A stretch of DNA of 64,000 nucleotides from Oscillatoria princeps RMCB-10. Its GTDB lineage: Bacteria > Cyanobacteriota > Cyanobacteriia > Cyanobacteriales > Oscillatoriaceae. The notes below the pieces were generated by a model. The model had not been told where the DNA came from. It saw only the letters and a program-made list of their open reading frames with translations, and did no database searches. Shown piece by piece: positions 6,364 to 62,910 of the stretch. Every line of letters begins with the position of its first letter. The first letter of the stretch is position 1. The DNA is taken from NCBI GenBank assembly GCA_019359235.1, contig JAHHHT010000036.1, forward strand, positions 24,245 to 88,244. Direction: 5' to 3'. The translations under genes were made by a program, and so were the position numbers.

Positions 6364-6424
6364 TGTGCCGGTGGGAGTGTGCTTAGAGGGTGTTTATAAA
6401 GTAATTGTTAAGCCTGAGTGGGGG

Positions 6425-6496: not shown

Positions 6497-6550
6497 TGAC
6501 TTCACCCACTCCTTCCCCGCCCCCCTGGGAACGAAAAAAACCCCCCTCTC

Positions 6551-6590: not shown

Positions 6591-6718
6591 AAATTATCCG
6601 CGAGCGCAGTTTCACCGGCTGCGCTCGCGGTTGTGCTCTCGTCTCAGGCAGAGACGCACGCTCCGTCACGTCTCTACCGGCTTTTTTAGGAGGAATGCAC
6701 CCAAACTCACGGAATTGC

Positions 6719-7285
6719 TCAGGATGCCGGAGCGGGCTCAGAGGCAGGAGTGGGTTCAGTGTGACTCACGTCAGGAGCGTGTTGCTTGACTCCTTGGCTC
6801 TGAGCTTCTAGAGTCGGCGAAACTTCTGCCCCAGGGATTGCGCCAGAGCTTTCACCGAAATTAATCCTCACCACTCGGCGCTGCGCTTCTTGCACCTTAG
6901 GCAGCCTCAGCGTCAAGATGCCATTCTTGTAATCGGCTTCCACCCGCTCGTTCTGAACCGGCACAGGAAGAGAAATCGTCCGCTCAAATTTCCCGTAACG
7001 GAATTCCGACCGGAAATAACCTTTTTCTTCCGCCTTGTGTTCGGATCGGTGCTCGCCGGCAATATAAACGGCGTCCCGAGTGACTCGGATATCCAAATCC
7101 TTCGCTTCCATACCGGGGATTTGCGCCCGCAGGAAGAGCTGGTCATCCGTATCTTGAAGTTCAACCGCAGGGGCCCAAGTCATCTCGTACTCCCGCCTGC
7201 CGCCTGACAGTTCCTCAAACAGTTCGTCAAACTGACGGCGTAACGTTTCTATTTCACTGAATGGTTGCCAACGTATTAATGCCAT
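6719..7285 (-). CDS. hspA: Hsp20/alpha-crystallin family small heat-shock protein with C-terminal Pro/Ala/Ser-rich tail
   Basis: 188 aa; N-terminal MALIRWQPFSEIETLRRQFDELF, alpha-crystallin core WAPAVELQDTDD...GILTLRLPK. Confidence 0.9.
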   Translation of the reverse strand: MALIRWQPFSEIETLRRQFDELFEELSGGRREYEMTWAPAVELQDTDDQLFLRAQIPGMEAKDLDIRVTRDAVYIAGEHRSEHKAEEKGYFRSEFRYGKFERTISLPVPVQNERVEADYKNGILTLRLPKVQEAQRRVVRINFGESSGAIPGAEVSPTLEAQSQGVKQHAPDVSHTEPTPASEPAPAS

Positions 7286-8032
7286 ACGTTCAGTTCCCTC
7301 CGTTACAGTTTATGGGTTCTCAATCTTTCAGGATTGCAGCAGTCTATCAGCTTACAGCCTATTTGGCTGTAAGCTCAATTTCGAGAAACCAATCGACCGG
7401 ACGCAAGAAAACCAGTTCAGCTGTGAGAGTGGCTGCAGAGAACTCACGGATCAGCGTTGCTGAGATGAGCGCTACTGGTTTCCTCGCTCACAATTTCATT
7501 ATGTCTCGCTGCACAGTGCATTCAGTGGGGGAAACCCTACTGTGTCAGTGGTATTGCCCGCACCTTTTGTGAGAGACACTTCCGGCGGCGGCTTGACGCA
7601 AATCTCGGGCTATTGTTGGGTTAGGCAAAGCGGAAACTTTTGCCGGAGTCTCAGCTTATCGCACCCGTTTCGATAAGCCAGACAGCCCTTGTGCGGGGTG
7701 AGTTGCGCCGCAACGCAACCAGCAGTGCGGGGAATATTTCTTGGGAGTTTAATCTGTTCAGTCGTCTGCTGCGCGAAAATAAAGGAACAGCTTGCCGGCA
7801 GCCAGAAGCCCGGTTTTCCCCCCCGCTAGCTGCTTCATATTTTTTGCGACATCTTGCTAACTTGCTTGACCGGCCTTTTTCAGTGCCGGCCTGGGAAGCA
7901 TTTCTGAGATAAAATACAGGCAAGGAATCCAGCAGCAGCGCGTTGCCTGCCGAGCCGGTTTGGTCGATTTAGCCCTTGAACTTGATTCAAAGAAGTGCCG
8001 CCAGAGCGAACAAAAGTAGGGGCGGGCTCACT

Positions 8033-8690
8033 ATAAATCTCTCGGAAAAGCCGAGAATTTTTATAAACCCGCCCCTGCTCTAGCAGTTCTAAATGATTTG
8101 TGCGAGTCTCTCTTTTCTTTGCTTGGCGCTCTACCCAAGGGGCGAGCCGCTAGCGCGTCTATGGCGTCTTGGCGGTTTATTAAAAAAAATAATACTCACT
8201 AGCAATCTCTCGGAGAAGCCGGGGAGATTTACAAACCGGCCCCTACCACAAGGGTTCACCCCGAGGGGCGGGTTAGCTAGCAATGTGTCGGGGAAGCTGA
8301 GGAGATTTATAGCAGTGGACAGCTCAGTAATGGACAAGGCCGGAACGCTGCCCTTACAAAGCCGCTGTAAGCGCTCCGCACTTCCGTAGATTGGAACAAC
8401 CAAGATGCCTGTCCTGCGAGGTATATCCGCAGCCAGTTAGGTTAGGACGTAGGACAGGCGTCTCGCCTGTCCCTATCCCTACTAGCAAGTGAGATGCCCT
8501 GTCCTTAACTGACTGTCCCTTGCTATATATCCGCAGGGACTGCGTTTGGCCTGCCCTCAATGTCTAATGTCCTAACCAATTTGGCTAGTGCTATATAAAC
8601 CGGCCCCTGCCACAAGGGTTCGCCCGCAGGGGCCGGTTCGCGAGAAATCTCTCGGGGAAGCGGAGGAGATTGATCAACCCGCCCCTACAG
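8033..8690. repeat. cluster of three copies of a composite hairpin repeat (AAATCTCTCGGrGAAGCsGrGGAGATT + ATAAACCsGCCCCTrC)
   Basis: Copies lie at 8033-8088, 8203-8325 and 8590-8690. Each carries two perfect inverted repeats, for example aaccggcccctgccacaagggttcgcccgcaggggccggtt. Related ATAAACCCGCCCC elements lie at 56740-56830 and 58985-59140. Confidence 0.7.
8436..8520. repeat. GGACAGGCGAGACGCCTGTCC-type palindromic repeat
   Basis: ggacaggcgtctcgcctgtccctatccctactagcaagtgagatgccctgtcc. Copies lie at 32283-32330, 38100-38200, 43900-43985 and 51838-51985. A derivative lies inside a coding sequence at about 40290-40350. Confidence 0.75.
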
Positions 8691-10187
8691 CTAGTGGCTG
8701 GACTTTTCTCCTAATTTGGGCGTCCTCGGAGTCAGGAGGCCATCTTTTAGGGCAGCTTTTGCTTTGTCCTTCTGGAGTTGAGCCGGCAGAGAAACGACAG
8801 GTTGGAACTGGTCGCAACGGACTTCAGAGCGCCAGTCGCCTCGCTGTGGCGGCCCAGCTGTGATGGGGGAAGAGGGATTTATTTTATAGCTTATCTGGAA
8901 TTCAATAATTTTAGTAAATCTAAAAATTGCCAGGGGGAGAAAGCCGAACGTGGAGCGGCAGTATGAACCGCCCTGCCGAACGCAGCAGCCGGGTGGCTCG
9001 CTCTGTGCTGAGATGCGAAAAATCCCAGAGGAGTCACAAGAAACCAGGTTTGTGGGGGTGGCTCAAAGGAGTCAGCTGGGTTGTGGACAAGCAGAGAGCC
9101 GGCAGGCACGCCGGTTCTGGCAAACTTGGAGAGCCGTGCGCCTGCCGCCTGAGGGCGGTGGGGAGGGATGGGGCCTGTAGCAAGTGAATTTGCGCAAAGC
9201 CCGGGGCTTGCCTTTCTGTGATTTTTGCCAGAAAATATTGCAGCCGGCCATCCCAACCTTTTTACAGGCTGCTGGCCGGCTAGACAGTTTTAAAGAGCAA
9301 ATCCGTTAGTTGCTGTTGATTGCCGTCTCTGCTGGCAGACGACCGGCTTTCTTCAGATTGGCACGATTGCTTGACTTTTTGCACTTTTTGCCCATTGCCG
9401 CCGGCAGCATCTCATGCGGCGGCAGCCGCTTGTGGCAAGCTGGCACAATCGTATAGAGCGGTTCTCAGTTGCACAAACCGCCGGGAAAGAAACTTAACCC
9501 CCCTAGCAAAAGCAGTTGCTCCCCTCCCCTTGAAGGGGAGGGGTTGGGGGAGAGGTCAATCTGTACCGCATCACACTAAAAATCCCTGTATGCAGCAGCT
9601 GCCTTTCAGCTGATGCCCGCAATCAGCCCGAGAAAACTTCACTTCACACCGGCTGAAAGCCAGAACAGCCGAGCTTGGAAAAAGCCGGCGCTCCGCACCT
9701 GTAATGCCGCGTTCATAAAAGAGTTGTTTGCCGCACTCTGTGCGAGTGCGGCTGTGCGCGGATAGCGCCCAAGGCAATACGGGTGAGAGAAAGCATCGGG
9801 TGTGCGGTTGAACAAACCGCCAGTATAGCAGAGAGAAGAGCGGATTCGGCATCTTTCTTCATGCGAGCTTCCGCCCACAGAACTAGCGCTCCTCTCTGAC
9901 CAGAAAGGTTTGATGTCGTTTGATGCCGCCAGAGGTGTGCCCAACTTTTCGGTTGGCGACACACTCCGGCCATCCTCCGCGCTCGCCGCCTGAACTTCTA
10001 GGGAACCGGGCTGACATCTGCAAGTGAGAATTGTCGCGGTTCCCTGACAGAGAGTTGCAATGGTTTAGAGGGCCCGTCTGAAAGCGGGGTGGGGGGAATT
10101 TTTTCATCTGTCTTCCTCCCGGTCGCCCCCCCTGACAGGCCATCGCCTTAACGGGAAAGGAAAGGGAAGGCAAGGCTCGGGCGCTTC

Positions 10188-10610
10188 TCAAGCAACAGCA
10201 GCGGTTTCTTCTCCGGATTCCGACTCGTCAGGCACAGCGGATTCACCTACGTAGATGAGGTGAATGTGTTTGTACCCCAGGCGGATTTCAAACTGATCCC
10301 CTGGCTTGAGTCCCATCTCTTTAGTATAATTTGACCCAATTACCAGCTGACCATTTTTGTGGACACTGACGCGATAAGTCGCTTCTCGGCCCCGGCCATC
10401 TTTGGTTCCCGTTGGGTCTAAGGCAATGCCCTTAGCCGCCAGCACCGCGTCGTAAAAATCGGTGAGATTGACTTTGACATTGCCACTCGAGCTGGTGCTG
10501 TAGTATCCGCAGCGCTTTGCTGTTTCCCGGCGCGGCAGGTGGGAAAGCTCTTTGACTTTTTGCAGGAGCGCCTTCCCGGTAAGGGTTTGGTATTCTTGTT
10601 CTGGTGCCAT
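10188..10610 (-). CDS. AbrB-family transcriptional regulator, cyanobacterial cyAbrB (CalA-like)
   Basis: 140 aa; C-terminal AbrB/SpoVT swapped-hairpin domain YRVSVHKNGQLVIGSNYTKEMGLKPGDQFEIRLGYKHIHL and N-terminal region typical of cyAbrB proteins. Confidence 0.85.
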   Translation of the reverse strand: MAPEQEYQTLTGKALLQKVKELSHLPRRETAKRCGYYSTSSSGNVKVNLTDFYDAVLAAKGIALDPTGTKDGRGREATYRVSVHKNGQLVIGSNYTKEMGLKPGDQFEIRLGYKHIHLIYVGESAVPDESESGEETAAVA

Positions 10611-12579
10611 AGGTTCTCCGAAAATTGTTCTTGGATCTCACGACAATCTAATTTAAGCAAAAATAGGTGCTGTTTGACAATAGGGTTTTTCGGGAAAAGC
10701 CAAAAAAGCAGCCAGCCTTGAGGGGCAACGGGTCAAGTCAGACTCAGATTGCCCCCCTTTGCTTTCGCTGGCGGGGCATCCCAGGACTTATGCCGAGGAA
10801 AGTTGCGGCGGTTTTGCGTCCCCTCCCTGTTTTCAGCTCTCGCAACCAGGAGTTGCGCTTGTCCGGGGTTGCCGGAAGGAATTGTGAAGAAATTCTCGCT
10901 GTTTTAAACAAAGGCGCTCTCATGGGGAGCCCCTAAACTGTTGAAGTTGTCTGGAAGCGGTCGCCTTTTTAGGGGATGGAGAGCGCCACGCCTTTACCAG
11001 TGGCTTCAAGGGCGGGTTTACCCAATCGGGTGCGGGCCGGTGCGTGCGAAGTGGAGATGGGGTCTTGCCGCACGCCGGGCTCCTTGGAATTCCGTCGGGG
11101 GCGAGCCAACTGCTGCGCAGAGTGCCGGCGAGACTAGACTGTCCAAAAAAGGCTCCCCTTCCGCAATATCACGTCCAGTTGATTGTCCGGCGAGCGGGAT
11201 TGAGGGCGAGAGGGCGGCAGGGGGGAAGAGGATTGAGGGGCAGTGGCTGAGAGGGGGAGAGCAATTAATTGCGGTCAATTGACCGGACACTATATAAACG
11301 AGATAAACGAGCAATTCCGGGGAGACGGGGGAATGGGGGAGGAGAAATTTTCTTCCATTCCTGGCACGCTCAGACGCTTCCAACCCTGTCCTCCAGACGC
11401 GGCTATCTCAGGACAACTCCGGTTTCGGCACTCCCCACCGGCTCGCCACCTCCCCCGGAAGGCAGGTTTTTTTCCCCTTCAACAGCGCCCAAACAGCACC
11501 GATTGAGGGAGCCGAAAGGCAAGCGCCACAACGGCTGAATCCGCACAGCTTGCAGCGCACCGGCAGGGGATTGTCAGCCGGTGCTGACGCCCGCTCCCAG
11601 TCAGGTGCCGGTCAGACAATTCAAAGCAAGCAACGCGCTCACCTCGCAACGCGCAACCCCACGGGCAGCAAGCGTACTGGCTCCTGTTTAGCCGCACAGA
11701 AATGCCACATTTGAGGTGAGCTTCACCCGCCATACTGCCTCGCACACCCGGGCGGCACCGCTGGCAAAACTGGCTTTAAAAATCGCCTGCGTGGCCACGC
11801 TGTTCTATCGTCTCAGGTGAATTGACCTTAAAAAAGACCCTCACGCCCATCCCCATCCCCAAAATGGGAGAGGGGAGAAAAAATCCTGTCTTTTTCTCAC
11901 TCCCCCTCACCCCAAGTGGGAGAAGGGGGCTGGGGGTCCCCTCTGGGGATGGGGAGAGAGGGGGGTGTTGCAGTGTGAAGTGCCGGTCTGCCAGAGACAT
12001 GATATTAGATGAGTATTTTTTCTCGACGCTCCTCCCGTCAAGCGCCAAAGGAAATTGCTCTTGTGAAGCACGCAAAACTGGCAAGCGCTGTCGCCCCACA
12101 CAGGAGGCGATTTTGTCAGCCGGCAACAGACCGGGCCTTTCAAACGGTATCGAGCGCCGGCTTTGAGGATATCCTTTTTGCTAAAGTGCAGATTTAGGCT
12201 CCTCAGTCAGGCCGGCACTGTCGGGCCAGCAGCACTAATAATAGCAGCCGGTCACGCTGGCACCGGCATAAAGAAAGTCTTTATCTTAAGAAGTCACAGG
12301 CGCATATAATATTGATTGCGCCAACCGCTGCGCGCGCCCGAATGCGGCATTGCTCGCACAGGGGAATTCGCTCGCCACAGGGCGCAGATGTCCTGTTTCC
12401 ATTCAGCCGGTGTCGCAGACGGGCAGCACTTTCTGCGAGCCCCTGTTCCCGCAGGTGCGGCTTTTGCCACTGGCGAGCCCCCAAACGGGGAGAAAGCCCG
12501 TTTGGGTGGGGAGCGCTGTTGGATATCGCCCGCGCTCGCCGAAGGCTCGGGATCTCTGTGGTTTATATTTGGACTGGAG

Positions 12580-13164: not shown

Positions 13165-14771
13165 AAGTTATCCTCGGGTTAGACTATTTGGTATTTTACA
13201 TTCTAACAAATTCTCTCGCAGGAAGTGCGCGTGTGAGTGGAAATCCGGGCTCGGTATCGGGTTGGTAAATGGTGGGGAACGCTTCCAGGATTCCGGAGGC
13301 CGGCCTCCTTTGTCAAGCACTTCCAGAAACTGCCGCCTATTTGATGCTAAGGCGATCGGGAGCATTCCATTTTTACATCTCCGGCACAGGCGGGACGCCT
13401 GTTGCGGGAGGCCCGGAACGCACGCGACTGCAAGCTTCTGTAAATTTTATCGCTTTTGGCCGGGCCCCTAATTTTATAATGGCTCTCTCAGAACCTGGTC
13501 TTTAGGCTTTGAGCGAGTCAAACACTGAGAGCGCCAGCGCTCCCTCCCAGCCTCTAGGCGTGCAGTCTTTTTCACCCCCCTCAAAAACCTGCCTAAAGCC
13601 ACTTTTAATGCTTGCTTCTGCAACGGGTGCCGGAAATTCCGGGATGACTCATGCTGCCGGTGCGTCGCCTGTCTTCCCGATTCCACCGGCACCAAAAACT
13701 GGCCCTTATCTACCCTCAACTGCGGATGTTTACCGCTCGACAAAGCAAGCCAGATGTGGGAATTCCTCTGTGAGTTCAAGCGGTTGAAATTGCGCCTCCT
13801 TAAAAGGCGCTTCCAGAAACACAGTGATGCCGGCGCTGCCCCGAATTCGTTGGGCGCAAGCCTTATCTTCCAGAACACTTGACCGTTCAAGGGTGGCGCG
13901 ATAGCCGCTGGTCTTCATCCAAAGCTTCGGCGAGGAAGCCAGTGAGAGCGTCAGCTAGCGCGCGCAGGTCAACGATTAAACATCAGCTGAATAACGCGGG
14001 TTTCTGTGCCTGGAAACACCGGTTTCTGGGATTGCCCCGAGCGGTTCTGTAGCGTGAGAGCCTGTCGAAAGGCGGCATGAGCTGCGCTCCTGAGAGCTGC
14101 CACCCACAAGTCACTAACCGAGCGCCAGCCTTGGGCGGGCGACTCTTCTGCGCCAGTCTTCTATGCCGGTGAGGGCACCGGCTACAGCCTCAACACTGAC
14201 CCGCCGAATTTTACCCCGATACCGGGCGGTTGCAACAGTAGCAACCCCGGTGGCAATCCAAGTCATCCTCAATCTGCGGTCAGCGATGCTCGTCTGAGGT
14301 TGAATGCCACACAGGAGAGCCCCGGTTGAAATCCTCACAGTTTGTCGCCCCACCGGCTCGGACAGTGGCACTCCGATCATTTTTGCTTGAACAATCATAA
14401 TATCTCTGAGGCGGGGCACTTGGCATTGGGCCTCGCGCATTGCCCATCCGCACCGCCCCGGCCATACTATAGATTAATCAACCGGACATAGTATCAGATA
14501 GCGCGGCGAGACATACCCCTCCCTCACCCGATGCCGGTGCATTTCCTTCCCCGCCCGGTCGCTCGGATTGCAGCACAAGCCGGTGGCTCCAGGGTTTTAT
14601 TATAAGCAATCTACAGGATTTTATATAATTTATTTAAAGAGAAAGAGTTGTGAAAGTGCCGGCTAGAGCGCCGGTCAAGTATTCTTCTGAAGCGGTGAGA
14701 AACCGGGGGCAGTCTCCGTGCCGGTAGCCGCCCTACGGCTATAAGACCCGAATTTAGGTGCTCCCATTCTA

Positions 14772-32282: not shown

Positions 32283-32400
32283 CTGACGCCGGACAGGCGT
32301 CCCGCCTGTCCTCCCGCCTGTCCGGTGCGCAGGCGGGTGCGCAGGCGAGTGCGCAGGCGAGTGCGCAGGCGAGACGCCTGCGCTACGCCTTTTTGGGGCT
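32283..32400. repeat. GGACAGGCG-family palindrome followed by 4-5 x 12-nt tandem repeat (GCGCAGGCGRGT)
   Basis: ggacaggcgtcccgcctgtcc...gtgcgcaggcgggtgcgcaggcgagtgcgcaggcgagtgcgcaggcgagacgcctgcgc, lying right where the Uma2-like gene loses its 3' end. Confidence 0.8.
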
Positions 32401-33049: not shown

Positions 33050-33900
33050 TGCCGGTTGTGTGTGACAGAAATTTTCGCAAAAATTGCACAAATTTCTGGA
33101 TTTATGCTAACCTAAGGATAATGGAAAAGGTGCGGCAATATCAGGTCACTAATGGGCCACATTCCATCAACTTCCTTCCCCGACAATCGCCTCGCATTCC
33201 CGTGGTATTCCCCTTGTTCCCAGCATCTGTAGGGTGCGTTCCGCGTGAGTGTACTCCTTATTTGTGTGCGTAAATTGATAAGGCGGAACGCACCCCCCGG
33301 TTGCGGTGCGTTCCGCGTGCGAGCCGGCACCATTCTGCGTGCGAGAATGGATTACGCGGAACGCACCCTACTTTCTACAGCTAGTTCCCCGGCGATTAGC
33401 CAGGTTCCTGGCGATTGGAAAGATGTTGTTGGCGCTCTCCGTGAGGGGTTAGACCTACAGCTAGTTCCTCCGAGATTAGCTAGGTTCCTGGCGATTGGAA
33501 AGATGTTGTTGGCGTTCTCCCTGAGGGGTTAGACGTTCTCTCTGGGAAGTAAAGAACGGCGTTGCATTGGCGAAGCGAAATTTCGGGCGCAGTCGTAAAG
33601 ATCCGCGCCGCCAATGCTTCGCCCCTACATCGGATCTTGTGTAGGGGCGAAGCATGAGCGCGACTGTTTCTGCAATCGGTGAAAAGATTACATCCGCTCA
33701 TGCTTCGCCCTTCCCCCTAGCGCTAGCTACATATAACCTTTAAAAAACCAAGCCAAAAAGGGGGTATAGGGTGGGTAAGACCCTACATCAATTCGCCAAC
33801 AGCTTCTTTCCAATCGCCGGAGAACTAGCAAAATCGCCTGGGAACTAGCTGTAACAGCTGAATATGCAACGCCATCCTCAATGCGCTCAAATGCGCTCAT
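33050..33900. repeat. non-coding repeat island (TAGGGTGCGTTCCGC hairpins, 2 x ~75-bp tandem unit, GGGGCGAAGCATGAGCG hairpins)
   Basis: 33225-33370 carries inverted gtagggtgcgttccgc/gcggaacgcaccctac units. 33360-33540 carries two tandem copies of ctacagctagttcc..gattagc.aggttcctggcgattggaaagatgttgttggcg.tctcc.tgaggggttagac. 33590-33720 carries cgaagcatgagcg palindromes also found at 62290-62430. Confidence 0.75.
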
Positions 33901-36284
33901 GCAAACCACCGGCGAATTAACTCGACCTGGAAGCGGAAACCGTCACCGGCATGTTCAATGAGTTCGCGGCGCAAAAGCAGGTTGAGGGTGCTGTCGAGGC
34001 TGTCGGGAAACTGGCGGGAGAGAAATTGCCGGCTGGCTGTTGCGCGTTCCCCCTGTGCGGCGATGCGGCGCAATACGGCTAACCCACCGGCATCTATTTG
34101 GTTGCGTTCGATGTCGGAGAAAAAGAAACTGCCACTTTCTAAAGCACGCGGCACTGCAGCTTCTATATCGGCCAAGGTGGCAAACCGGCGCACCGAGGGA
34201 TCTTGCTCGTTTTTGAGAATCACAATCTCGTTGCAGAGGAGTTGCACCAAAAAGGGGTGATGGCGGGTTAAATCTAGAACTCGCTGAACCGCATCGGGTT
34301 CATAGCGCAGGGTAAAATCTTTGATGGGGCGCTCTATCAGCTGACGCGCTTCGGGTTCTCTCAGGTAGCTGATATGCACGACTTGCACGTTGATCAGGTA
34401 GCTCGCCCAGCGCTGAAATTCCTCTATCGTGTGGGAGCCGGCTAGCAGCACTTTGAAGCGGGGGCGGTGCTGGATTAAGTGGCGCAGCATTCCCAAAATG
34501 CGCTCTTCATCAAAGCGTCCTTTCCTGATGGCGCTGTCTAAAGCCTCGAATTCATCCAAGGCAAGCAGGGCGGTATTTTGTTCGAGTGTCTTTTCGACCT
34601 GATCTAGCCATTCGTCGAAGCCGGTGAAGGGATCTGCTGCTAGGGTTTCGCGGGGGAGGGGCGGCAGATTCAATTCGCTTTTTCGCTTGGCTGAGTTGAT
34701 CATGCCTTTAGCGAGGTTGTAGAGAAAACCTGCCGGGTCACTCGCCTGTGATGCCGGTCCTTGCAAGTCCACAAACATGGGGATGATACTGTTGGGGAGC
34801 AGGCGTCCGAGGTTGTTGAGAAGGGAGGTTTTGCCCATGCGCCGCTGACCGTAGAGTAGCAAAGGGGGGCGACGCCGGTCTAGCAGTAATTGCTCGATGC
34901 GCTTGCCGATCTCAGTGCCGCTGATATCAGCGGGTTTAACAAAGATTTGCTGCTGCTCATTCAGGGGAATGCCAGTGATGTAGGGGTTGTCAATCTCTTG
35001 GCGGAGTTCAGCTTCTTTTGCCAGTTCGGACACACGCTCGGCAAGAATTTGATGCCAGCGGAGGGCGATGGGCTGAAACCGAACCGCGTATTTGTCGCTG
35101 CTGCGGGTTAAGTCCTGCAACTTAACATATAAATGAGTTGCAACAGCGCTGAGCGCTAGACGCTGGTTATAAGCACTTTCCTGATTGAGAGCAGCGTCTG
35201 CATCCTCGCTGGTGCCACTGAAGATGCGCAGCACTGCGCGGGCTGGGCTTTGCAGTTCGCTAACAACCAGAGTGCGGTGAGCGTTACGGATGGCTTCCAC
35301 ATCCGAACAGCGTTCTAAACTCCATGCGTCCAGTTCAATTTGTGTCGGCTGTGCCGCCCAGCGCTGCCGGCTGGCGATCAGGTATTCGATGGCAGCTTTT
35401 CCCTCAGTTGGGTTGCGCTCCATCACTAAGAGGAGGTGCTTGTCCAAGTCATATAGGGGAATGCGCTGCCACTTATACCAAAAGGCAGAATGCCAGCGCA
35501 ACAGACTGGGTTGAGTGCCTGTACGTTTTTTGTCCAGTTCATACAGGAGGATATTCCATACGGCTAGGAAGGGATAGAGTACCGCTGGCAGCCACAAGTT
35601 TACAGTTACTGCCACGCCCGACGCCACGCCGAACGCCACGCCGAACGCCACGCCCCACACCACGCCCCACACCACGCCCCACACCACGCCGAACGCCACG
35701 CCGAACGCCACGCCCAACGCCACGCCCCACGCCACGCCGAACGCCACGCCGAACGCCACGCCGAACGCCACGCCCAACGCCACGCCCCACGCCACGTCCG
35801 ACGCCACGCCCCACGCCACGCCCCACGCCACGCCCGACACCACGCCCAACGCCACGCCCACCCCCACGCCCCACGCCACGCCCGACACTACGCCCAACGC
35901 CACGCCCAACTCCACGCCCAACGTCACGCCCCCCGCCACGCCCCCCGCCACGGCCCACGCCACACCCCACGCCAGGGCAGGAAAAATTTTGTCAGCTGAC
36001 TCGCCTAAGCCCCACAGTACCAATCCGAGAAGTGAGTTAACTAAGATAGGCGAGAGTAGATATCCTTGGAACAGCAGCCGCCACACAGCGGGGTTCCGCC
36101 AGCGCCCCTGTCTCATCAACAAAATCAGAGAGGAGTCAGGCTTCAAATTGGGGTGAATCCTGGTTAGGTGATTGCGGAAAGCTGTGGGGCGGAAGAAAAC
36201 CCAGAACAGCAGTTGCAGCGTGCCCAGAATTAGGTTGGGGTGCTGCTTAGGTGCGTGGGTGTAGGCGTTGCGCGGGACGTTCAT
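33897..36284 (-). CDS. three-domain protein: N-terminal glycine-zipper (GxxxG-repeat) membrane domain, conserved middle domain and C-terminal AAA-like (NPYITG...GKTSLL) ATPase
   Basis: 795 aa. Residues ~100-230 read ...GVAWGVALGVAFGVAFGVAFGVAWGV...GVVWGVVWGVVWGV... Then comes a middle domain shared with the 494-aa paralog. The C-terminal ATPase has NPYITGIPL, Walker A LLLYGQRRMGKTSLL and Walker B LALDEFEALD. Confidence 0.85.
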   Translation of the reverse strand: MNVPRNAYTHAPKQHPNLILGTLQLLFWVFFRPTAFRNHLTRIHPNLKPDSSLILLMRQGRWRNPAVWRLLFQGYLLSPILVNSLLGLVLWGLGESADKIFPALAWGVAWAVAGGVAGGVTLGVELGVALGVVSGVAWGVGVGVALGVVSGVAWGVAWGVASDVAWGVALGVAFGVAFGVAFGVAWGVALGVAFGVAFGVVWGVVWGVVWGVAFGVAFGVASGVAVTVNLWLPAVLYPFLAVWNILLYELDKKRTGTQPSLLRWHSAFWYKWQRIPLYDLDKHLLLVMERNPTEGKAAIEYLIASRQRWAAQPTQIELDAWSLERCSDVEAIRNAHRTLVVSELQSPARAVLRIFSGTSEDADAALNQESAYNQRLALSAVATHLYVKLQDLTRSSDKYAVRFQPIALRWHQILAERVSELAKEAELRQEIDNPYITGIPLNEQQQIFVKPADISGTEIGKRIEQLLLDRRRPPLLLYGQRRMGKTSLLNNLGRLLPNSIIPMFVDLQGPASQASDPAGFLYNLAKGMINSAKRKSELNLPPLPRETLAADPFTGFDEWLDQVEKTLEQNTALLALDEFEALDSAIRKGRFDEERILGMLRHLIQHRPRFKVLLAGSHTIEEFQRWASYLINVQVVHISYLREPEARQLIERPIKDFTLRYEPDAVQRVLDLTRHHPFLVQLLCNEIVILKNEQDPSVRRFATLADIEAAVPRALESGSFFFSDIERNQIDAGGLAVLRRIAAQGERATASRQFLSRQFPDSLDSTLNLLLRRELIEHAGDGFRFQVELIRRWFA
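35611..35973 (-). repeat. intragenic 12-nt minisatellite (about 30 copies of GCCACGCCSMAC) encoding the GV(A/V)(W/F) glycine-zipper units
   Basis: Near-perfect tandem 12-mers gccacgccgaac/gccacgccccac/gccacgcccaac lie on the plus strand inside the 795-aa gene. A more degenerate version lies at about 38950-39500 inside the 494-aa paralog. Confidence 0.9.
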
Positions 36285-37866: not shown

Positions 37867-38290
37867 GGTGGGTTCCGCGCTATCTATTATCGCACATAAT
37901 GGGTTGGGTGAGAAACCGGGTTTCTTGAAGAAACCCGGTTTATTGGGGGCAGGGGGGTGGGTTCCGCCTTATGGATTTCCGCACACAAATCAGGGGTGCG
38001 GTCAGGCGGAACCCACCCTACTTACTATTGTAACCTGTATCGCGTGCCGGTGGCAAGAAAGCCGATTATTATAGCAATAGACAGTCAGTTTAGGACACTG
38101 GGACACGAGATACAAGGTATAGGCGTAGGGCAGGCGTCTCGCCTGCCCTTAAGGTCTCTGGGACAGGCGAGACGCCTGTCCTACGTCCTAACCTAAGTGG
38201 CTGCTGCTATATAGATTTTAGGAGGCAGAGCCTCCTTATTGGCGCTCCCAACCTTGGCGTCCTTGGCGTCTTGGCGGTTCCTCATTAATC
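37861..38290. repeat. intergenic cluster of dispersed repeats (GGGTGGGTTCCGC hairpin pair, GAAACCCGGTTTC palindromes, GGACAGGCG palindromes, CTTGGCG heptamers)
   Basis: Inverted gtagggtgggttccgc (37865) pairs with ggcggaacccaccctac (38005). The other elements are agaaaccgggtttcttgaagaaacccggttt (37921), gggcaggcgtctcgcctgccc / ggacaggcgagacgcctgtcc (38130-38190) and ccttggcgtccttggcgtcttggcggtt (38250). Confidence 0.8.
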
Positions 38291-38317: not shown

Positions 38318-39802
38318 TCATTCAGCGCCTGTGATGTGGGGGCTGCCGGCTTGTTGTTCAACTTCTGCCGCCAGTTCGCGGACACAACCGGCTACAATGT
38401 CATACCAGCGAAGGGCAATGGGGTAAAAACGAAGGGCGTCTTTATCGCCACAGGCGGTTAACTCCCGCAAGAAGTTATCCAGATTCTGCGCGACAGCGCT
38501 GAGGGCTAGCAGCCGGTTAAAGGCACTCTCCTGACTCACACCGGCATCTACTTCTTGGCTAATCTGGCCAAAGCTGATCAGCCAAATACCGGCAGGGCTT
38601 TCTAAATCACCGGCACCCAATTTTTGGTGTGCGTTACTGATATCTCGCACGCCGGCACAGTTTTCTAAACTCCTGGCGTCTATTTCAATCTGCGCCGCCA
38701 GCGCCGCCCAGCGCTGCCGGCTGGATTTCAGGTAGTTAATTGCGGCTTTGGCTTCATCGGGATTGCGCTCCAGTATCAAAATCAGGTGCTTGTCTAATTT
38801 AGGGAAAGGCAAAAACTGCCACTCATGCCAGAATGCAGAGTGCCGGTGCAACAAACTGAATTGACTCCCTGCAAATCGTTTGTCCAGTTGATAGAGGAGG
38901 ATATTCCACACTGCTAACAGAGGATAAAATACCACCGGCAGCCAATAGTTGACAGACACTCCCAGAGCGAACGCCACCCCCGACGCCACCCCCGACGACA
39001 GGCCAAATGCTAGACCCAAGGTGACAATCGACGCCAAGCGCCACCCGACGCGCCACGCGATGTCGGGCGAGACGCCGGGAACCACGCCCGACACCACGCC
39101 CAACACCACGCCCAAGGTGACGCCGGACATCACGCCCAACACCACGCCCAAGGCAAGACCGGATGCCAAACTGGACACCAGACCGGAGGCCACGTGAAAC
39201 GCGACGCCCAGCCCGACGCCAAACACCACGCCCAATCCGACGCCCCACCCCACACTCCGCTTGGCGCTAAACCCCGGACTCAAGGTGACGCCCAGGACTG
39301 CGCCCGACGCCGCGCCCAACCCGACGCCCCACCCGACGCCCCACGCGAACCCCAACGCCAAATTGAGCGCCACGCCCAGCGCCGCAGTCAGCCCGACGCC
39401 CAAGGTGACAGCTAGGGCCACGCCTGAGGCCACACCCCACTGCACGCCCGACGCCACCCACGATGTCAGCCCCCACCGCACGCCCGACGCCACGCGCCAG
39501 AAAATGATTTCTTTTGACTCGCCCAGTACCGACAGCACTAAACCCAGGATTGAAAATGCCAGGAAAGGTAAGATCAAATATTCCTGTATTAGCAGTCGCC
39601 ACAAAGCGCAGTTGCGCCACCGCAAACGGGTGCCCTGTTGCCCATTGGGGGTTAAGGCGGGGTCAATGCGGGTGAGGTGATTGCGCCATGCTGAGGGGCG
39701 GAAGAAAAGCCAGAACAGCAGTTGCAAACTGCCCAGAATAATATTGGGGTGCTGTTCGGGCGCATCTGTGTAGCTGTTGGGTGGAACAGTGGGAGAGGTC
39801 AT
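38318..39802 (-). CDS. paralog of the 795-aa gene with glycine-zipper membrane domain and middle domain but no ATPase domain
   Basis: 494 aa. The N-terminal 95 aa are highly similar (NIILGSLQLLFWLFFRPSAWRNHLTRI vs NLILGTLQLLFWVFFRPTAFRNHLTRI). The GxxxG-rich region is degenerate. The middle domain is conserved (WLPVVFYPLLAVWNILLYQLDKR...). The protein ends at ...PHITGAE, exactly where the ATPase starts in the paralog (NPYITGIPL). Confidence 0.8.
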   Translation of the reverse strand: MTSPTVPPNSYTDAPEQHPNIILGSLQLLFWLFFRPSAWRNHLTRIDPALTPNGQQGTRLRWRNCALWRLLIQEYLILPFLAFSILGLVLSVLGESKEIIFWRVASGVRWGLTSWVASGVQWGVASGVALAVTLGVGLTAALGVALNLALGFAWGVGWGVGLGAASGAVLGVTLSPGFSAKRSVGWGVGLGVVFGVGLGVAFHVASGLVSSLASGLALGVVLGVMSGVTLGVVLGVVSGVVPGVSPDIAWRVGWRLASIVTLGLAFGLSSGVASGVAFALGVSVNYWLPVVFYPLLAVWNILLYQLDKRFAGSQFSLLHRHSAFWHEWQFLPFPKLDKHLILILERNPDEAKAAINYLKSSRQRWAALAAQIEIDARSLENCAGVRDISNAHQKLGAGDLESPAGIWLISFGQISQEVDAGVSQESAFNRLLALSAVAQNLDNFLRELTACGDKDALRFYPIALRWYDIVAGCVRELAAEVEQQAGSPHITGAE

Positions 39803-39914: not shown

Positions 39915-41738
39915 CTAAGCGCTGACAAAGGAAACGGCGACGCGAAATCCGAAGCGGTTATTGCGAATTTCCGGCACTACTCTGCAGCGGAAAGCGGAAC
40001 GGCAATCCCTGGGGTTGCTGAACCAAGAACCCCCGCGCAGCAACCGGCGATATTGATTTCCACCGGCATCCCAAACACCCCCATCAGCTAGCGCACCTGT
40101 GTAATTATCATGCCACGGATCGGCGCACCACTCCCAGACATTCCCGTGGGTGTCGTACAAACCAAAAGTGTTGGCTGGAAAACTCCCCACATCCGCTGTC
40201 TGTTTGCTATAGATTCCTTTGGGTTCAGAAGCGTAAATATAGTGACCGTGATAATTAGCTAATTCAGTCGTAACTGTCTCGCCAAAGTGGAAAGGTGTAG
40301 TGCAGGCGTCCTCGCCTGTACCTATTTTATAGGCGTCCTCGCCCGCACACGCGCGACAGGCGTATTCCCATTCCGCCTCGCTGGGTAAGCGGTAGTTGCG
40401 CCCGGTTGCTTGGGACAGTCGCGCACAAAATTCGGCAGCCTCGTTCCAGGATACATTCTCCACCGGCCTGTTTGCGCCTTTGAAATAAGACGGATCGGGA
40501 TTTAAATCCAGGTACACCTTGGGTAAAGCTGCGACAGCTTTCCACTGCGCCTGAGTTATGGGATATTTCCCCATAAAAAAGGGTTGCACTTTTACCAGGT
40601 GCTGCGGGCTTTCCTCATTATATCGCCCTGACTCAGTTTTTGGGGAACCCATCAGGAAAGTTCCCCCCGGAATTGACACCATTTCCAGGTTCAACCCGCC
40701 TCCCAAGTCATGGGCAAAGTATTCCGCTTGCCGGCGCGTGCGGTTGATTTCTCGCCCGTGCGCGTCTACCGTGATTGCGTCGAAGGCAAAAAACTGCAAG
40801 GGTGTTTTGCCTGAGGGGGGAGAGGTGCTAACCGAAATGGGCAATCCCGACGTGACGAATCCAATCCCGACAAAACCGGCTGCTTTAAAAAGTTGCCGGC
40901 GCGTTGGGGAATCCTCTTTCATCAGGGAGGAAACAGCTTGCAGCGCTTCCACTGCAGACGGGTAGCGCAGGCGAGAGTCACAGCGCACCATTGTGTCTAA
41001 AATCTTTGCCAGCTGGGGGCTAACTTGCACTTTGTTGCGCCAGATAATGTCACCCGTCTGGGGATTTTCTGGCAATCGCCGGGGAAAGATGCCGGTGAGC
41101 GCTTGTATTGCAGTCATTCCCAGCGCGTAAACATCGCTGCTAAACTGGGGTTTGCCCTTCGCTTGCTCACCCGGCATGTATCCGGGGGTGCCAATCCCAA
41201 CGGTCAAACTCGTCTGAGCTGGCGCATTTGCCACTTGGGTGCAGACTTGCTTAATTGCGGCAAAGTCTATCAAGACGATTTTACCATCTTGGCGGCGTCG
41301 GATTAAGTTTGCCGGTTTGATATCGCGGTGGATGACACCTTCTTTATGCGCGTGAGAAAGGACTGTCAGCACATCCAGCAAAAAGGCAATCGTCCGTTCT
41401 TCAGTCCACCGGCATCCCGGTTTGATTTCCGCAGACAGGTTCTCTCCTTCTATAAATTCTCGCACGAGATAGAACTCTTGATTCTCCTCGAAGTGAGCCA
41501 AAAATCCGGGAATTTGGTCGTGTTCGCCCAATTTCTGGAGGAGTTTAGCTTCCGTGTCGAATAGGGTTCTGGCAATCTCCAACGCGGACAGATTGTTGGA
41601 CAGGGGTTTGAGCTGTTTGACGACGCACGCAGGACTATCTGGTAACTGGGTGTCTGAGGCGAGGAAAGTTGACCCAAATCCTCCGCCTCCCAAGTGTTTG
41701 ACGATCTTATAGCGCCCCGCAAGGGTTGTTCCCAACAT
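39915..41738 (-). CDS. Ser/Thr protein kinase fused to C-terminal FGE-sulfatase (formylglycine-generating-enzyme-like) domain
   Basis: 607 aa; kinase subdomains GGGGFGSTF...VVKQL, HRDIKPANL, DFAAIK. The C-terminal FGE fold has RLPSEAEWEYACRA, HGNVWEWCADPWH and RGGSWFSNPRDCRSAFR. Confidence 0.9.
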   Translation of the reverse strand: MLGTTLAGRYKIVKHLGGGGFGSTFLASDTQLPDSPACVVKQLKPLSNNLSALEIARTLFDTEAKLLQKLGEHDQIPGFLAHFEENQEFYLVREFIEGENLSAEIKPGCRWTEERTIAFLLDVLTVLSHAHKEGVIHRDIKPANLIRRRQDGKIVLIDFAAIKQVCTQVANAPAQTSLTVGIGTPGYMPGEQAKGKPQFSSDVYALGMTAIQALTGIFPRRLPENPQTGDIIWRNKVQVSPQLAKILDTMVRCDSRLRYPSAVEALQAVSSLMKEDSPTRRQLFKAAGFVGIGFVTSGLPISVSTSPPSGKTPLQFFAFDAITVDAHGREINRTRRQAEYFAHDLGGGLNLEMVSIPGGTFLMGSPKTESGRYNEESPQHLVKVQPFFMGKYPITQAQWKAVAALPKVYLDLNPDPSYFKGANRPVENVSWNEAAEFCARLSQATGRNYRLPSEAEWEYACRACAGEDAYKIGTGEDACTTPFHFGETVTTELANYHGHYIYASEPKGIYSKQTADVGSFPANTFGLYDTHGNVWEWCADPWHDNYTGALADGGVWDAGGNQYRRLLRGGSWFSNPRDCRSAFRCRVVPEIRNNRFGFRVAVSFVSA

Positions 41739-42019: not shown

Positions 42020-43873
42020 TTAAGGAGTCCTCGCCAAAGAAAAGGCTACGCGAAAACCGCAGTTATTCTTGCGATGGTCTGGCCCAACCCCGCTACGGTA
42101 AGCCGAACGGCAACGCCAGGGTATGTTCTCCCAAGAAGCTCCAGGCGCCACAAAATGTTTTAGATCGGCTTCCCAGACACTCCCATCAGACGGCGCACCA
42201 ATATAATTACCGTGCCACGGATCGGCGCACAATTCCCAGACATTCCCGTGCATCTCGTATAGCCCAAAGGCGTTCGGCGGAAACCTGCCCACATCTGTTG
42301 TCCCTCCGTTATTGTGTAAATAGTTAGCCAAATCGGGGGTAATCGTCTCGCCGAAGTGGAATGGAGTTGTGGTTCCTGCGCGACAGGCGTATTCCCACTC
42401 CGCCTCGCTGGGGAGTCGGTAGTTGCGCCCGGTTGCTTGGAAAAGTCGGGCACAAAATTCCACCATCTCGTTCCAGGATACTTGCTCCACCGGCCTATTT
42501 GCGCCTTTGAAATAAGAAGGTTCGGGATTTAAGTCGCGGCTGACTTTGGGTAAAGAGGCGACAGCTTTCCACTGCGCCTGAGTTACAGTATATTTGCCCA
42601 TAAAAAAGGGTTTCACTGTTACCCAGTGCTGTGGTTTTTCACGGTTTTCGTCGTCTTCGCTTGGCGGGGAACCCATCAGAAAGGTTCCCCCCGGAATCGA
42701 CACCATTTCTAAAATCACTCCGTCTCCTACGTCATGGGGAAAGAATTCAGCTTGCTGGCGCGTGCGGTTGATTTCTCGCCCCCCCGCGTCTACTGTGATT
42801 ACATCGAAGGTAAAAGTTTGCAAAGGGGAAACCTCAACAATTGTGGAAGAGGGAGAAGTCGTGAAAACCTGACGGGCGAATACCGACGCCACAAATCCCC
42901 CACCGGCAAATCCCGCCAGCTTGAAAACTTGCCGGCGCGTCAGGGGGGAATTCGGTTTTGTCAAAGAAGAAACCGCTTGCAGCGCCTCAGATGCTGACGA
43001 GTAGCGCTGGCGGTAATCATAGCGCACCATTTTATCTAAAATGTTTGCCAACTTCGGACTAACTTGCGCCCTGTTGCGCCAGAGAATTTCACCCGTCTGC
43101 GGATCTTCTGGCAATTGCCTCGGGGGGATGCCGGTGAGGGCTTGAATTGCCGTGATTCCCAGGGCGTAAACATCGCTGCTCAACTGGGGTTTGCCCTGAG
43201 CTTGCTCACTCGGCATGTATCCGGGGGTGCCAATCCCAACTGTCAAACTCGTCTGACTCTGCTGCGCATTGGGCACCTGCGTGCTGACTTGCTTAATTGC
43301 CCCAAAGTCTATCAAGATGATTTTCCCATCTTGGCGGCGTCGGATTAAGTTTGCCGGTTTGATATCGCGGTGGATGACACCCTCCTGATGGGCGTAAGAA
43401 AGGGCTGTCAGCACCTCCAGCAAAAAGGCAATCACCCGTTCTTCTGCCCACTTGCATCCCGGTTTGATTTCCTCGCACAGACTGTCGCCCTCGATGAATT
43501 GCTGCACTAGATAGAATTCTTGATTTTCCTCAAAGTGAGCCAAAAGGCTGGGAATTTGGTCGTGTTCGCCCAATTTCTGGAGAACCCTAGCTTCGGTGTT
43601 GAATAACCGTCTGGCAATCTTCAGGGTAGACGGATCGTTCGACTGGGGTTTGAGCTGTTTAACGACGCACACAGGATTGTCTGGTAGCTGCGTGTCTGAG
43701 GCTAGGAAAGTTTGGCCAAATCCCCCGCCTCCCAGATATTTGACGATTTTATAGTGCCTCTTAAGGGTTCGTCCCAACATGGCTTTGATGCAGTGTCTGG
43801 CAAGTTTTTCTCCAGCATACAGCCTTTTGCCACAAATGTCAATCCCCTTTTTGGCAAAAGTTTTCACCCTCAC
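42020..43873 (-). CDS. Ser/Thr protein kinase::FGE-sulfatase fusion, tandem paralog (likely start at internal Met, coordinate 43780)
   Basis: 617-aa ORF. The sequence from MLGRTLKRHYKIVKYLGGGGFGQTF onward is collinear with the downstream paralog (about 70% identity by eye). The 31 aa before it are probably not translated. Confidence 0.9.
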   Translation of the reverse strand: MRVKTFAKKGIDICGKRLYAGEKLARHCIKAMLGRTLKRHYKIVKYLGGGGFGQTFLASDTQLPDNPVCVVKQLKPQSNDPSTLKIARRLFNTEARVLQKLGEHDQIPSLLAHFEENQEFYLVQQFIEGDSLCEEIKPGCKWAEERVIAFLLEVLTALSYAHQEGVIHRDIKPANLIRRRQDGKIILIDFGAIKQVSTQVPNAQQSQTSLTVGIGTPGYMPSEQAQGKPQLSSDVYALGITAIQALTGIPPRQLPEDPQTGEILWRNRAQVSPKLANILDKMVRYDYRQRYSSASEALQAVSSLTKPNSPLTRRQVFKLAGFAGGGFVASVFARQVFTTSPSSTIVEVSPLQTFTFDVITVDAGGREINRTRQQAEFFPHDVGDGVILEMVSIPGGTFLMGSPPSEDDENREKPQHWVTVKPFFMGKYTVTQAQWKAVASLPKVSRDLNPEPSYFKGANRPVEQVSWNEMVEFCARLFQATGRNYRLPSEAEWEYACRAGTTTPFHFGETITPDLANYLHNNGGTTDVGRFPPNAFGLYEMHGNVWELCADPWHGNYIGAPSDGSVWEADLKHFVAPGASWENIPWRCRSAYRSGVGPDHRKNNCGFRVAFSLARTP

Positions 43874-43899: not shown

Positions 43900-43985
43900 A
43901 TAGGGTGTCCTTGGGTTAAGACGTAGGACAGGCGTCTCGCCTGTCCCTATCCTTACTAACAAGTGAGATGCCTTGTCTGGGAAGG
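43900..43985. repeat. GGACAGGCGAGACGCCTGTCC-family repeat
   Basis: gacgtaggacaggcgtctcgcctgtccctatccttactaacaagtgagatgccttgtctgg is near-identical to the copy at 8436-8520. Confidence 0.8.
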
Positions 43986-51837: not shown

Positions 51838-51985
51838 TCTGAAAGGGACAGGCGGGACGCCTGTCCTACGTCTCTATGGCGTAGCACAGGCGTCTCGCCT
51901 GTGCCTGGATGTCCAGCGTCTCTATGGCGTAGCACAGGCGTCTCGCCTGGGAGGTCTGGGGACAGGCGGGACGCCTGTCCTACGC
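51838..51985. repeat. four tandemly arranged GGACAGGCG/GCACAGGCG palindromic units
   Basis: gggacaggcgggacgcctgtcctacg...ggcgtagcacaggcgtctcgcctgtgcc...ggcgtagcacaggcgtctcgcctgg...ggacaggcgggacgcctgtcctacg, between the DUF423 gene and chlM. Confidence 0.8.
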
Positions 51986-51996
51986 CTGGAAAAGCT

Positions 51997-61929: not shown

Positions 61930-62910
61930 TGTAATTTCTATGCTAATAAGACTAGGCAAATTAGGTTAGTTTCCAGGCGATAAGCTAGTTTCCGGGCGAT
62001 TGGAAATCGCGGCTATACAAACGAAGTCCGCCTGCGCGGACTTAAGAGCTAAAAGTAGGGTGCGTTCCGCGTGCTTCTGACTGCTACTTCTAGGGAATAC
62101 TGTGAACGCGGAACGCACCACCGGCACTCGTTGGGGCGGGTTTATTCAGATGTTGAGTTGTGTGGCTTTGAGTTCGGGCGAATCCGCCCCCACCGGCATT
62201 ATATCACGGAGGTGCCGGTGCGTGCGAGATGCCGGCTGCGCGCGGTGCCGGGCGGGTTTTTTGGAGGTTGTCTGTGGGTGGCACAGGTGTTAGGGCGAAG
62301 CATGAGCGTTAGCGAAGCGGCTGCGTCAGCAGCTATATAATCCTTCCTTGGGTGGCAAAAATAGTCGCGCTCATGCTTCGCCCCTAAGCTGGAATTCCTC
62401 TAGGGGCGAAGCATGAGAGTGAGGAGCTTTCCTGGGCATTCCTGGTGCCGGGCGGGTTTATTCAGATGTTGAGTTGTGTGGCTTTGAGTTCGGGCAAATC
62501 CGCCCCCACCGGCATTATATCACGGAGGTGCCGGTGCGTGCTTTGATGCCGGGTTTCGTGGGGTGGGGGCGGGTTTATTCAGATGTTGAGTTGTGGGGCA
62601 AATATTTCGGGCAAATCCTCCCCTACAGGCATTCTATCACAGAGGTGCCGGTGCATACAAGACACCGGCACTCGCGGGGCGCTAAAAGTAGGGTGCGTTC
62701 CGCGTGCTTCTGACTTCTACTTCTAGGGAATACTCTGAAGGCGGAACGCACCCCCGGCACTCGTAGGGGCGGGTTTATTCAGATGTTGCGTTGTGTGGCA
62801 AAGATTTCGGGCGAACCCGCCCCTACAGGCATTCGTGGGGGCGCTGGGAACACGGTGCGTTCCGCAGAAGCGCGACTTCTACTTCTGCGGAATCCTCTCA
62901 AGGCGGAACG
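61930..62910. repeat. repeat island: four copies of a ~95-bp composite MITE-like unit (GGGCGGGTTTATTCAGATGTTGAGTTGTGTGGC...GAATCCGCCCC + CACCGGCA..TGCCGGTG), TAGGGTGCGTTCCGC hairpin pairs and GGGGCGAAGCATGAGCG palindromes
   Basis: Units start at about 62136, 62451, 62567 and 62768. Inverted gtagggtgcgttccgc / gcggaacgcaccctac pairs lie at 62055-62125, 62690-62760 and 62850-62920. cgaagcatgagcg palindromes lie at 62290-62430. The interval has no credible ORF. Confidence 0.75.

Follow-up and report, generated by a model that had tools for sequence, protein, structure and literature searches.

GTAG-tagged repetitive extragenic palindromes (REPs) and the related REPINs are reportedly mobilised by REP-associated tyrosine transposases (RAYTs), which are Y1, IS200-like enzymes (Nunvar 2010; Bertels & Rainey 2011). 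Other small repeats invite comparison, namely the Rickettsia palindromic elements (RPEs; Ogata et al. 2000), which are reportedly palindromes of about 100-150 bp; the small dispersed repeats SDR1-8 of cyanobacteria (Elhai et al. 2008), which are said to measure 21-27 nt and to occur in Nostocales; and the MITEs (miniature inverted-repeat transposable elements), which span roughly 100-400 bp and possess terminal inverted repeats and target-site duplications. REPs of the GTAG and CGTC types have also been found in frame inside genes, often as dimers or groups that code for 20-30 residues (Di Nocera et al. 2013, PMC3733652), and RPEs are cited in that work as in-frame intragenic palindromic repeats. 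Here we analyze a 64,000-nt stretch of the genome of Oscillatoria princeps RMCB-10 (contig JAHHHT010000036.1, positions 24,245-88,244; "the window" denotes this whole stretch), in which the gene for a Ser/Thr kinase, kinase 1, contains an extra segment within the region coding for its FGE-sulfatase (formylglycine-generating enzyme-like) domain. We conclude, with a probability of roughly 0.75, that this segment is a copy of the lineage's own GTAG-tagged REP that was fixed in frame inside the conserved motif CRAGT/TTPF, the slash marking the split.

The repeats of the window resemble the GTAG REPs and REPINs (PMC3733652) in that their hairpin measures about 25 nt, has a stem of 6-9 bp closed by a small loop, and bears GTAG at one end, as well as in their many dispersed, mostly intergenic copies, inverted pairs, grouped arrays and occasional in-frame intragenic copies. 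The same hairpin type lies beside a RayT gene in contig L242, as in the REP/RAYT system. Within this comparison, the kinase copy differs from the resident family by a loop of 4 nt instead of 3. As with the RPEs, a palindromic repeat stands in frame in a conserved coding gene and the protein is functional, the extra peptide being thought, for the RPEs, to be located in a loop; unlike RPE-1, which is longer and specific to Rickettsia, the element is a REP of 25 nt, or 42 nt when doubled, in a cyanobacterium, and it does not belong to the RPEs. The repeats also recall the SDRs and the short tandemly repeated repetitive (STRR) heptamers of filamentous cyanobacteria, which are likewise very small hairpin repeats, nested in their own copies and set within tandem arrays of short units: in the window, REPs are bordered by 12-nt arrays at 32300-32373, and the kinase insert in its long form resembles a copy nested in a copy. 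Unlike the SDRs, which were reportedly described in Nostocales, they are found in the Oscillatoria lineage, and the likeness is one of description.

An earlier reading of the stretch, made without database searches (hereinafter the sequence-only reading), had described the kinase insert as MITE-like. It does share with MITEs such as Nezha in cyanobacteria and Correia in Neisseria the character of a small, non-autonomous repeat that lands in genes, sometimes in frame. Nevertheless, neither terminal inverted repeats nor a target-site duplication nor a length of about 100-400 bp is seen at the kinase site or in the intergenic copies, and the unit is a single GTAG-tagged hairpin of about 25 nt, so that REP is the appropriate designation. 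The exact hairpin sequence has no match in the searchable literature text, and neither the stem sequence nor the encoded peptides appear in the list of intragenic REPs of PMC3733652. The finding is a cyanobacterial addition to the intragenic REPs catalogued in other bacteria and involves no new mechanism. Its interest is that it represents a datable case in which a REP entered a highly conserved motif and survived, with two length states and a decay series in close relatives. It also calls for caution in annotation: where a conserved domain has a "loop insertion" peculiar to one lineage, this can be the fossil of a mobile repeat, and in the short-form orthologs described below the REP origin would be undetectable without the RMCB-10 copy.

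The insert of kinase 1 and the resident repeat family

The features at the kinase locus are as follows.

39915-41738, minus strand: kinase 1, the 607-aa host of the insertion, in which a Ser/Thr kinase is joined to an FGE-sulfatase domain at the C-terminal end (open reading frame (ORF) list, Pfam, MBW4497112.1)
42020-43873, minus strand: kinase 2, the tandem paralog, likewise a Ser/Thr kinase with an FGE-sulfatase domain at its C-terminus but with an unbroken CRAGTTTPF motif, which serves as the empty-site reference (ORF list, Pfam, DNA alignment)
40302-40349, minus strand: 16 codons, C464-C479 (CAGEDAYKIGTGEDAC, TGT...TGC), in place of Gly-Thr (GGA ACC in the paralog) (paralog DNA alignment, codon view, 71-sequence alignment)
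40294-40324, plus strand (antisense to kinase 1): unit 2, which has the full REP format, GTAG(40297-40300)-TG-CAGGCG-TCCT-CGCCTG-TA-C (match to model R1, fold z -4.8)
40321-40333, no strand assigned: spacer palindrome CCTAT-TTT-ATAGG between the units (sequence reading; a small hairpin in the 91-nt fold)
40331-40349, plus strand: unit 1, a partial copy without the GTAG tag (AGGCGTCCTCGCC + CGCACA) (2-mismatch match)

Kinase 1 matches the Pfam families Pkinase (2.6e-30) and FGE-sulfatase (5.9e-56), the latter (PF03781) with 190 bits over profile positions 4-254 of 255; the nearest solved structure to the FGE-like domain is PvdO (5hha; E 3e-35). The peptide reads EWEYACRA-CAGEDAYKIGTGEDAC-TTPFHFG in kinase 1 and EWEYACRAGTTTPFHFG in the paralog. 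The respective codons are CGC GCG TGT GCG GGC GAG GAC GCC TAT AAA ATA GGT ACA GGC GAG GAC GCC TGC ACT ACA CCT and CGC GCA GGA ACC ACA ACT CCA. The DNA alignment of the two kinases bears out the extra peptide that the sequence-only reading had placed between EWEYACRA and CTTPFHFG, and the DNA string that it quoted is indeed found there on the minus strand; the net gain, however, is 42 nt or 14 codons, not 15. The insertion splits the near-invariant motif CRAGT/TTPF of the FGE-sulfatase domain and keeps the reading frame.

The insert contains an 18-nt direct repeat, GT(G/A)C(G/A)GGCGAGGACGCCT, with a period of 27 nt and an identity of 16/18, the first copy of which is given by unit 1 on the sense strand. 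The proposal of a tandem pair of units holds approximately: the sequence CAGGCGAGGACGCCTG is exact in the second unit (40303-40318), which folds into a perfect 6-bp stem with outer pairs, whereas the first unit reads CGGGCGAGGACGCCTA, with 2 mismatches, and has no tag. A "collapsed" form, whose left arm is taken from unit 1 and whose right arm is taken from unit 2, GTGCGGGCG-AGGA-CGCCTGCAC-TAC, is itself a full REP with a 9-bp stem, the outer three pairs of which (GTG/CAC) covary as they do among the variants of the intergenic family.

This intergenic family has the consensus, head first, G(A/G)C-GTAG-NN-CAGGCG-TC(T/C)-CGCCTG-NN-C, and forms the stem-loop GGACAGGCG-(AGA/GGA)-CGCCTGTCC. The core CAGGCG-N3-CGCCTG occurs in 11 intergenic copies in the window (0 expected), of which 9 have an exact GTAG two bases ahead of CAGGCG. 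The 21-mer with up to 3 mismatches is found at 8 sites (0 expected, 100 shuffles); the six other sites counted by the sequence-only reading were thus an underestimate by either measure. All 12 occurrences of CAGGCG-N3/4-CGCCTG in the window are either family copies or the kinase copy. The outer stem pairs covary among the variants (GGA/TCC, GGG/CCC, GCA/TGC, GCG/CGC), and single-strand DNA folds of family copies reach z values from -5 to -10. With its short imperfect palindrome in the REP size range (20-40 bp overall), its GTAG tag, its many mostly extragenic copies and their arrangement in inverted dimers and grouped arrays, the family is a GTAG-tagged REP of the format GTAG-NN-CAGGCG-loop-CGCCTG-NN-C. 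An Rfam search of the window yielded no family above threshold. The copies and clusters used in the analysis are listed below.

8446-8475, plus strand: intergenic REP copy (model R1, 45.3 bits)
13378-13407, plus strand: degenerate intergenic REP copy without the GTAG tag (model R1, 25 bits)
32285-32389, no strand assigned: two REP copies linked by 12-nt tandem arrays of REP half-sites (repeat search, model R1)
38122-38187, no strand assigned: REPIN-like pair of inverted REPs that follows the neighbouring gene on its downstream side (model R1, 43.2 and 44.5 bits)
43920-43949, plus strand: REP copy upstream of kinase 2 (model R1, 45.3 bits)
51843-51986, no strand assigned: four-REP cluster, two copies of which lie in a 48-nt tandem duplication, family D14 (repeat search, model R1)

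Folding of the inverted pair at 38122-38187 yields a single long hairpin (-33.4 kcal/mol, z -9.9). Members of the family also occur in GCA_000332335.1, a PCC 10802-like genome, as well as in three relatives from metagenomes, and the copy at 43920-43949 is identical at L002 2014-2043, L245 9840-9869 and L246 7764-7793. Given that this copy occupies an orthologous position in four genomes, the family is at least as old as these lineages. The 12-nt arrays between the REPs at 32300-32373 consist of TCCCGCCTGTCC (x2) and GTGCGCAGGCGA (x4.1), with a like arrangement at L245 19580-19670. The 21-mer with the 3-nt loop was also detected on two IMG/VR contigs classed as viral (L003 10221-10241; L004 4543-4591, the latter as an inverted pair).

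The connection between the insert and this family is provided by a covariance model, R1, built from 13 intergenic copies with the kinase copy left out. The model matches 40294-40324 over its full length (model positions 1-30; 28.4 bits, E 4.9e-6), which is the best match outside the training set, the next unrelated one having an E value of 0.09. The kinase copy follows the family format with one extra loop base, has the exact 6+6 stem and carries GTAG (40297-40300) at the family spacing; it is both the only copy with a 4-nt loop in the window and the only one inside a confidently coding gene. In this respect, the derivation of the insert from the dispersed intergenic palindromes, as put forward by the sequence-only reading, is upheld.

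Derived state, length forms and boundaries

An uninterrupted RAGTTTPF-type motif is present in 118 of the best 120 homologs of kinase 1, the exceptions being kinase 1 itself and P0001, the representative of its 90% protein cluster. In an alignment of 71 sequences, the columns of the split motif are occupied by R in 71/71, A in 69, G in 60, T in 67, T in 59, T in 68, P in 70 and F in 71; the PvdO sequence has a gap at the insertion site, and the kinase 2 orthologs in L002, L246 and L247 are likewise uninterrupted. Judged by these alignments, the segment of kinase 1 is a derived insertion. The opposite scenario, an ancestral loop that was lost everywhere else, is almost certainly wrong: no support for it was found, the homologs with the unbroken, near-invariant motif include Oscillatoriales, Nostocales and others, and the tandem paralog, its orthologs and PvdO agree with them. 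The comparison of orthologs that the sequence-only reading had recommended therefore contradicts an ancestral loop.

An unrelated insertion of about 20 residues occupies the identical site in P0024, an FGE-kinase encoded at 6001-7965 of an AT-rich, cyanobacterium-like contig (L249), where the protein reads CRS[VNSDQLSVISEELTVEEWNEKYNQ]PFHFG. This insertion is coded by a tandem array of heptamers (L249 7495-7541, consensus TCAGTTA) that resembles the STRR repeats of cyanobacteria. The independent heptamer-repeat insertion in P0024 indicates that the site is permissive.

The 90% cluster of kinase 1 includes ten members, among which the long form, with two units 27 nt apart and 14 extra codons, is found only in RMCB-10. 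A short form with 5 extra codons is present in at least four related lineages in four distinct versions, RA[H/S/L][A/V]GEDTRTAP, for example, CGT GCA CAT GCC GGC GAG GAC ACC CGC ACT GCG CCC. The two forms differ by a single 27-nt indel bounded by the 18-nt direct repeat, that is, the short form corresponds to the long form minus the 27 nt between the direct repeats, plus substitutions. In the short forms, the tag and part of the stem have decayed, and none of the short-form orthologs is matched by R1. The nucleotide distances are 0.067-0.081 from the short forms to RMCB-10 and 0.018-0.065 within the short-form clade; RMCB-10 is sister to this clade and lies slightly nearer to the kinase 2 outgroup. 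The insert would have entered after the duplication that gave rise to kinase 1 and kinase 2 and before RMCB-10 split from the PCC 10802-like lineages. The 27-nt indel would then reflect a gain in RMCB-10, by duplication or by nested insertion, or else a loss in the sister clade, by a deletion between the repeats.

The long form is known from one assembly only, the NCBI and JGI records being the same 8.63-Mb contig, which raises the possibility that the true state of RMCB-10 is short and that the 27-nt repeat is a consensus error at the hairpin. An artefact of this kind appears very improbable, considering that the extra 27 nt preserve the frame, that they include a 9-nt AT-rich filler, itself no simple copy, and that the repeat copies differ at 2/18 positions, which is not the pattern of a stutter error.

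The boundaries can be read in two ways. In the first, two clean insertions of 27 nt and 15 nt would have occurred, the removal of which restores the canonical RAGTTTP, with GGT ACA representing the native Gly-Thr; the state with GT and unit 2 only would read RAGTGEDACTTP. In the second, a single REP would have replaced Gly-Thr, followed by a nested 27-nt partial duplicate made of 18 nt of REP and the filler ATAAAATAG. Two clean insertions around native GGT ACA are retained as one option and not as the firm history, given that the REP homology spans those codons and that x-Thr/Ala codons result with fair ease when the left arm of the REP, GTRCR, is read in this frame. The extra loop base was also considered as a frame-restoring mutation and rejected, since the frame is already kept by a 15-nt core whose loop measures 3 nt.

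Source of the hairpin and route of entry

The exact 16-mer CAGGCGAGGACGCCTG has at least 120 matches in genome contigs, and all those listed are non-cyanobacterial, from Verrucomicrobia, Acidobacteria, Chloroflexi, Planctomycetes, Hydrogenedentes and other phyla; the tagged 22-mer CAGGCGAGGACGCCTGYCCTAC has at least 120 matches in metagenomes, in GC-rich, non-cyanobacterial-looking contigs. Among the genome matches listed, TAC, TCC or CAC is found at positions +4 to +6 in 91/130 copies, with about 2 each expected by chance, and complementarity in the 3-nt extension of the stem amounts to 1.63 of 3 positions, where random sequence would give 0.75. The full stem GGACAGGCG...CGCCTGTCC (GGA...TCC) of the cyanobacterial family is found in at least 40 metagenome matches. 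REPs of this type occur naturally in a variant with the 4-nt loop AGGA. In metagenome-assembled genomes and metagenome contigs (loci L005-L244), the form (GGA)CAGGCG-AGGA-CGCCTG(TCC)-TAC often occurs as inverted pairs, with several copies per genome. The near identity of these REPs across phyla suggests that a RAYT has spread horizontally along with its REP or that convergence has been strong.

In contig L242, the hairpin (971-986) lies about 105 nt downstream of a RayT gene (158-865). The product of this gene passes the NCBIfam model of the REP-associated tyrosine transposase, NF047646, with 83.8 bits (cutoff 80), and belongs to a large family named RayT by JGI. The location of a copy near a RayT gene in L242 implies that this hairpin type is, at least somewhere, a REP in the full sense. 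Of the 4431 homologs of the L242 RayT, the best 120 contain named proteins of Verrucomicrobia-like type, none of them belonging to Oscillatoria. Cyanobacteria commonly possess group 4 RAYTs (PMC5581495).

One alternative to a REP origin is that the hairpin and its duplicate arose in situ, by local slippage or template switching, with the family likeness due to convergence of GC-rich palindromes. The native flanks already hold CGCCTGT (within TAC GCC TGT) and a CTAC, and the two 27-mers are identical at 19-20/27 positions, with a weak similarity of their flanks at 7/14 (binomial p ~0.04-0.09), which is compatible with a local tandem duplication; moreover, an identical source copy with a 4-nt loop is not seen nearby. 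Such local processes would nevertheless have to produce an exact 12-base stem, a well-spaced GTAG tag and the trailing C, which together give the full-length model match, and to do so with a 16-mer that is identical to the tagged repeat core of many genomes; furthermore, the initial gain of 15 nt has no local template. We therefore regard an in-situ origin as unlikely and favor derivation from the REP family. Several observations weigh against this derivation as well. Neither the 64-kb window nor the roughly 76 kb of related loci from Oscillatoria contain another copy with a 4-nt loop, so that a direct source copy is not seen there; the eight ORFs beside the REP clusters of the window, searched against Pfam, include no transposase and no RAYT; and unit 1, a partial copy without a tag, is not detected by R1 at E values up to 10, its best local match being the REP copy at 32366 (flank-shuffle p 0.05). 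In addition, with RMCB-10 sister to all short forms, a single event on either branch accounts for the 27-nt indel, and the boundaries of the insert are ambiguous, in that the exact restoration of RAGTTTP favors two insertions, yet the REP homology spans GGT ACA and ACT ACA.

As for the route of entry, the uninterrupted motif read on the antisense strand is AGGTGTAGTTGTACC, and the native antisense site, GTAG-T-TGTACC, resembles the REP ends GTAG...TGTCCC. At the level of sequence, this resemblance suggests an entry directed by the tag or by microhomology. The REP might have been inserted by RAYT-type single-strand transposition beside the GTAG that is supplied by the native Thr-Thr codons (ACT ACA), or else by microhomology-guided copying from a REP located elsewhere. 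Because a native GTAG lies at the junction, it hints at a way in which REPs might select insertion sites. A broader possibility, which we consider doubtful, is that REP hairpins and, separately, heptamer repeats repeatedly colonise this one stretch of the kinase family, where the Gly-Thr-Thr-Thr codons (GGN ACN ACN ACN, with CTAC/GTAG) would mimic the tag and the ends of the REP; in that case, the loops of cyanobacterial sensor domains would regularly vary in frame through tag- or microhomology-directed insertion followed by repeat-mediated length change.

Consequences for the protein and other repeats of the window

The gene remains intact, as the sequence-only reading had supposed in stating that the frame was unbroken. 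Comparison of the long form with its short-form orthologs gives a dS of 0.17-0.20 and a dN/dS of 0.15-0.24 (0.15-0.17 in the FGE domain), and this purifying selection indicates that kinase 1 stayed functional. The insert itself differs at 11/36 aligned bases between the long and short forms, compared with about 7% for the whole gene, and apart from GGC GAG GAC (Gly-Glu-Asp), no part of it is conserved throughout. It drifts at about a neutral rate and loses its hairpin. Considering that the protein is under purifying selection while the insert drifts and its hairpin is lost, the insert looks like a passenger that is tolerated because it extends a permissive loop rather than like a recruited module, and the term "domesticated", which the sequence-only reading had applied to it, is not supported. 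The first codon of the insert (window 40347-40349) is a hypervariable position at the foot of the hairpin: in the window, L002, L245, L246 and L247, it is TGT, CAT, TCT, CTT or CAT, in genes that differ by 2-8%.

The insert could alternatively be a domesticated functional loop, in which an acidic Gly-Glu-Asp metal-binding motif or a loop closed by a Cys464-Cys479 disulfide adds a sensor function. The gene is under purifying selection, the insert has been retained since before the lineages split, and GGC GAG GAC is kept in all five lineages and in both copies, a conservation that could reflect some constraint and that counts against a mere passenger. Both cysteines, however, are found only in RMCB-10, being replaced in the other lineages by H, S or L (first position) and by R (second position); the length varies from 5 to 14 extra codons; and the insert differs between forms to the extent given above. 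AlphaFold models no ordered structure at residues 465-477 (pLDDT <50). A functional loop is accordingly an improbable explanation, and we retain that of a tolerated passenger. When the insert is mapped on the fold, as the sequence-only reading had proposed, it is found to follow the EWEYACRA helix (residues 454-462), but its conformation is not defined at such confidence; the paralog P0005, which has the canonical motif, is also poorly modelled after this helix (pLDDT 46-64), so the low confidence is not specific to the insert. Among the Foldseek matches listed, only those to the kinase domain were found.

The kinase locus shows additional variation. In the PCC 10802-like genome GCA_000332335.1 (L245 8128-13653), the kinase 1 ortholog stands alone, kinase 2 being missing between an MVP-like gene and kinase 1. 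A second indel polymorphism of the FGE-like domain is located downstream of the same motif (window 42160-42300 and L002 2090-4057): the shorter loop, ANYLHNNGGTTDVG, is shared by RMCB-10 kinase 2 and the L246 and L247 orthologs of kinase 2, and the L002 ortholog and kinase 1 have ANYDGNYIYASAPKGIY...

The window contains further repeats. The hairpin families D9 and D12, with the arms GGGGCGGG...CCCGCCCC, are clustered in the intergenic regions 8018-8686 and 62134-62858. The dispersed palindrome AGAAACCGGGTTTCTT...AGAAACCCGGTTT (family D16) is found at 25654, 29215, 37906 and 48642, and the motif CTTGGCG(T/C)CCTTGGCGTCTTGGCGGTT (family D20) at 6543, 29293, 38244 and 52901. The region 7300-12500, which includes the REP at 8446-8475, is a repeat-rich segment of about 5 kb without an ORF of at least 150 aa. 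Arrays with a 12-nt period (62 copies) are present at 35539-36042 and 38937-39400, inside the ORFs 33897-36284 and 38318-39802, where they encode repeats rich in Gly, Val, Ala and Ser.

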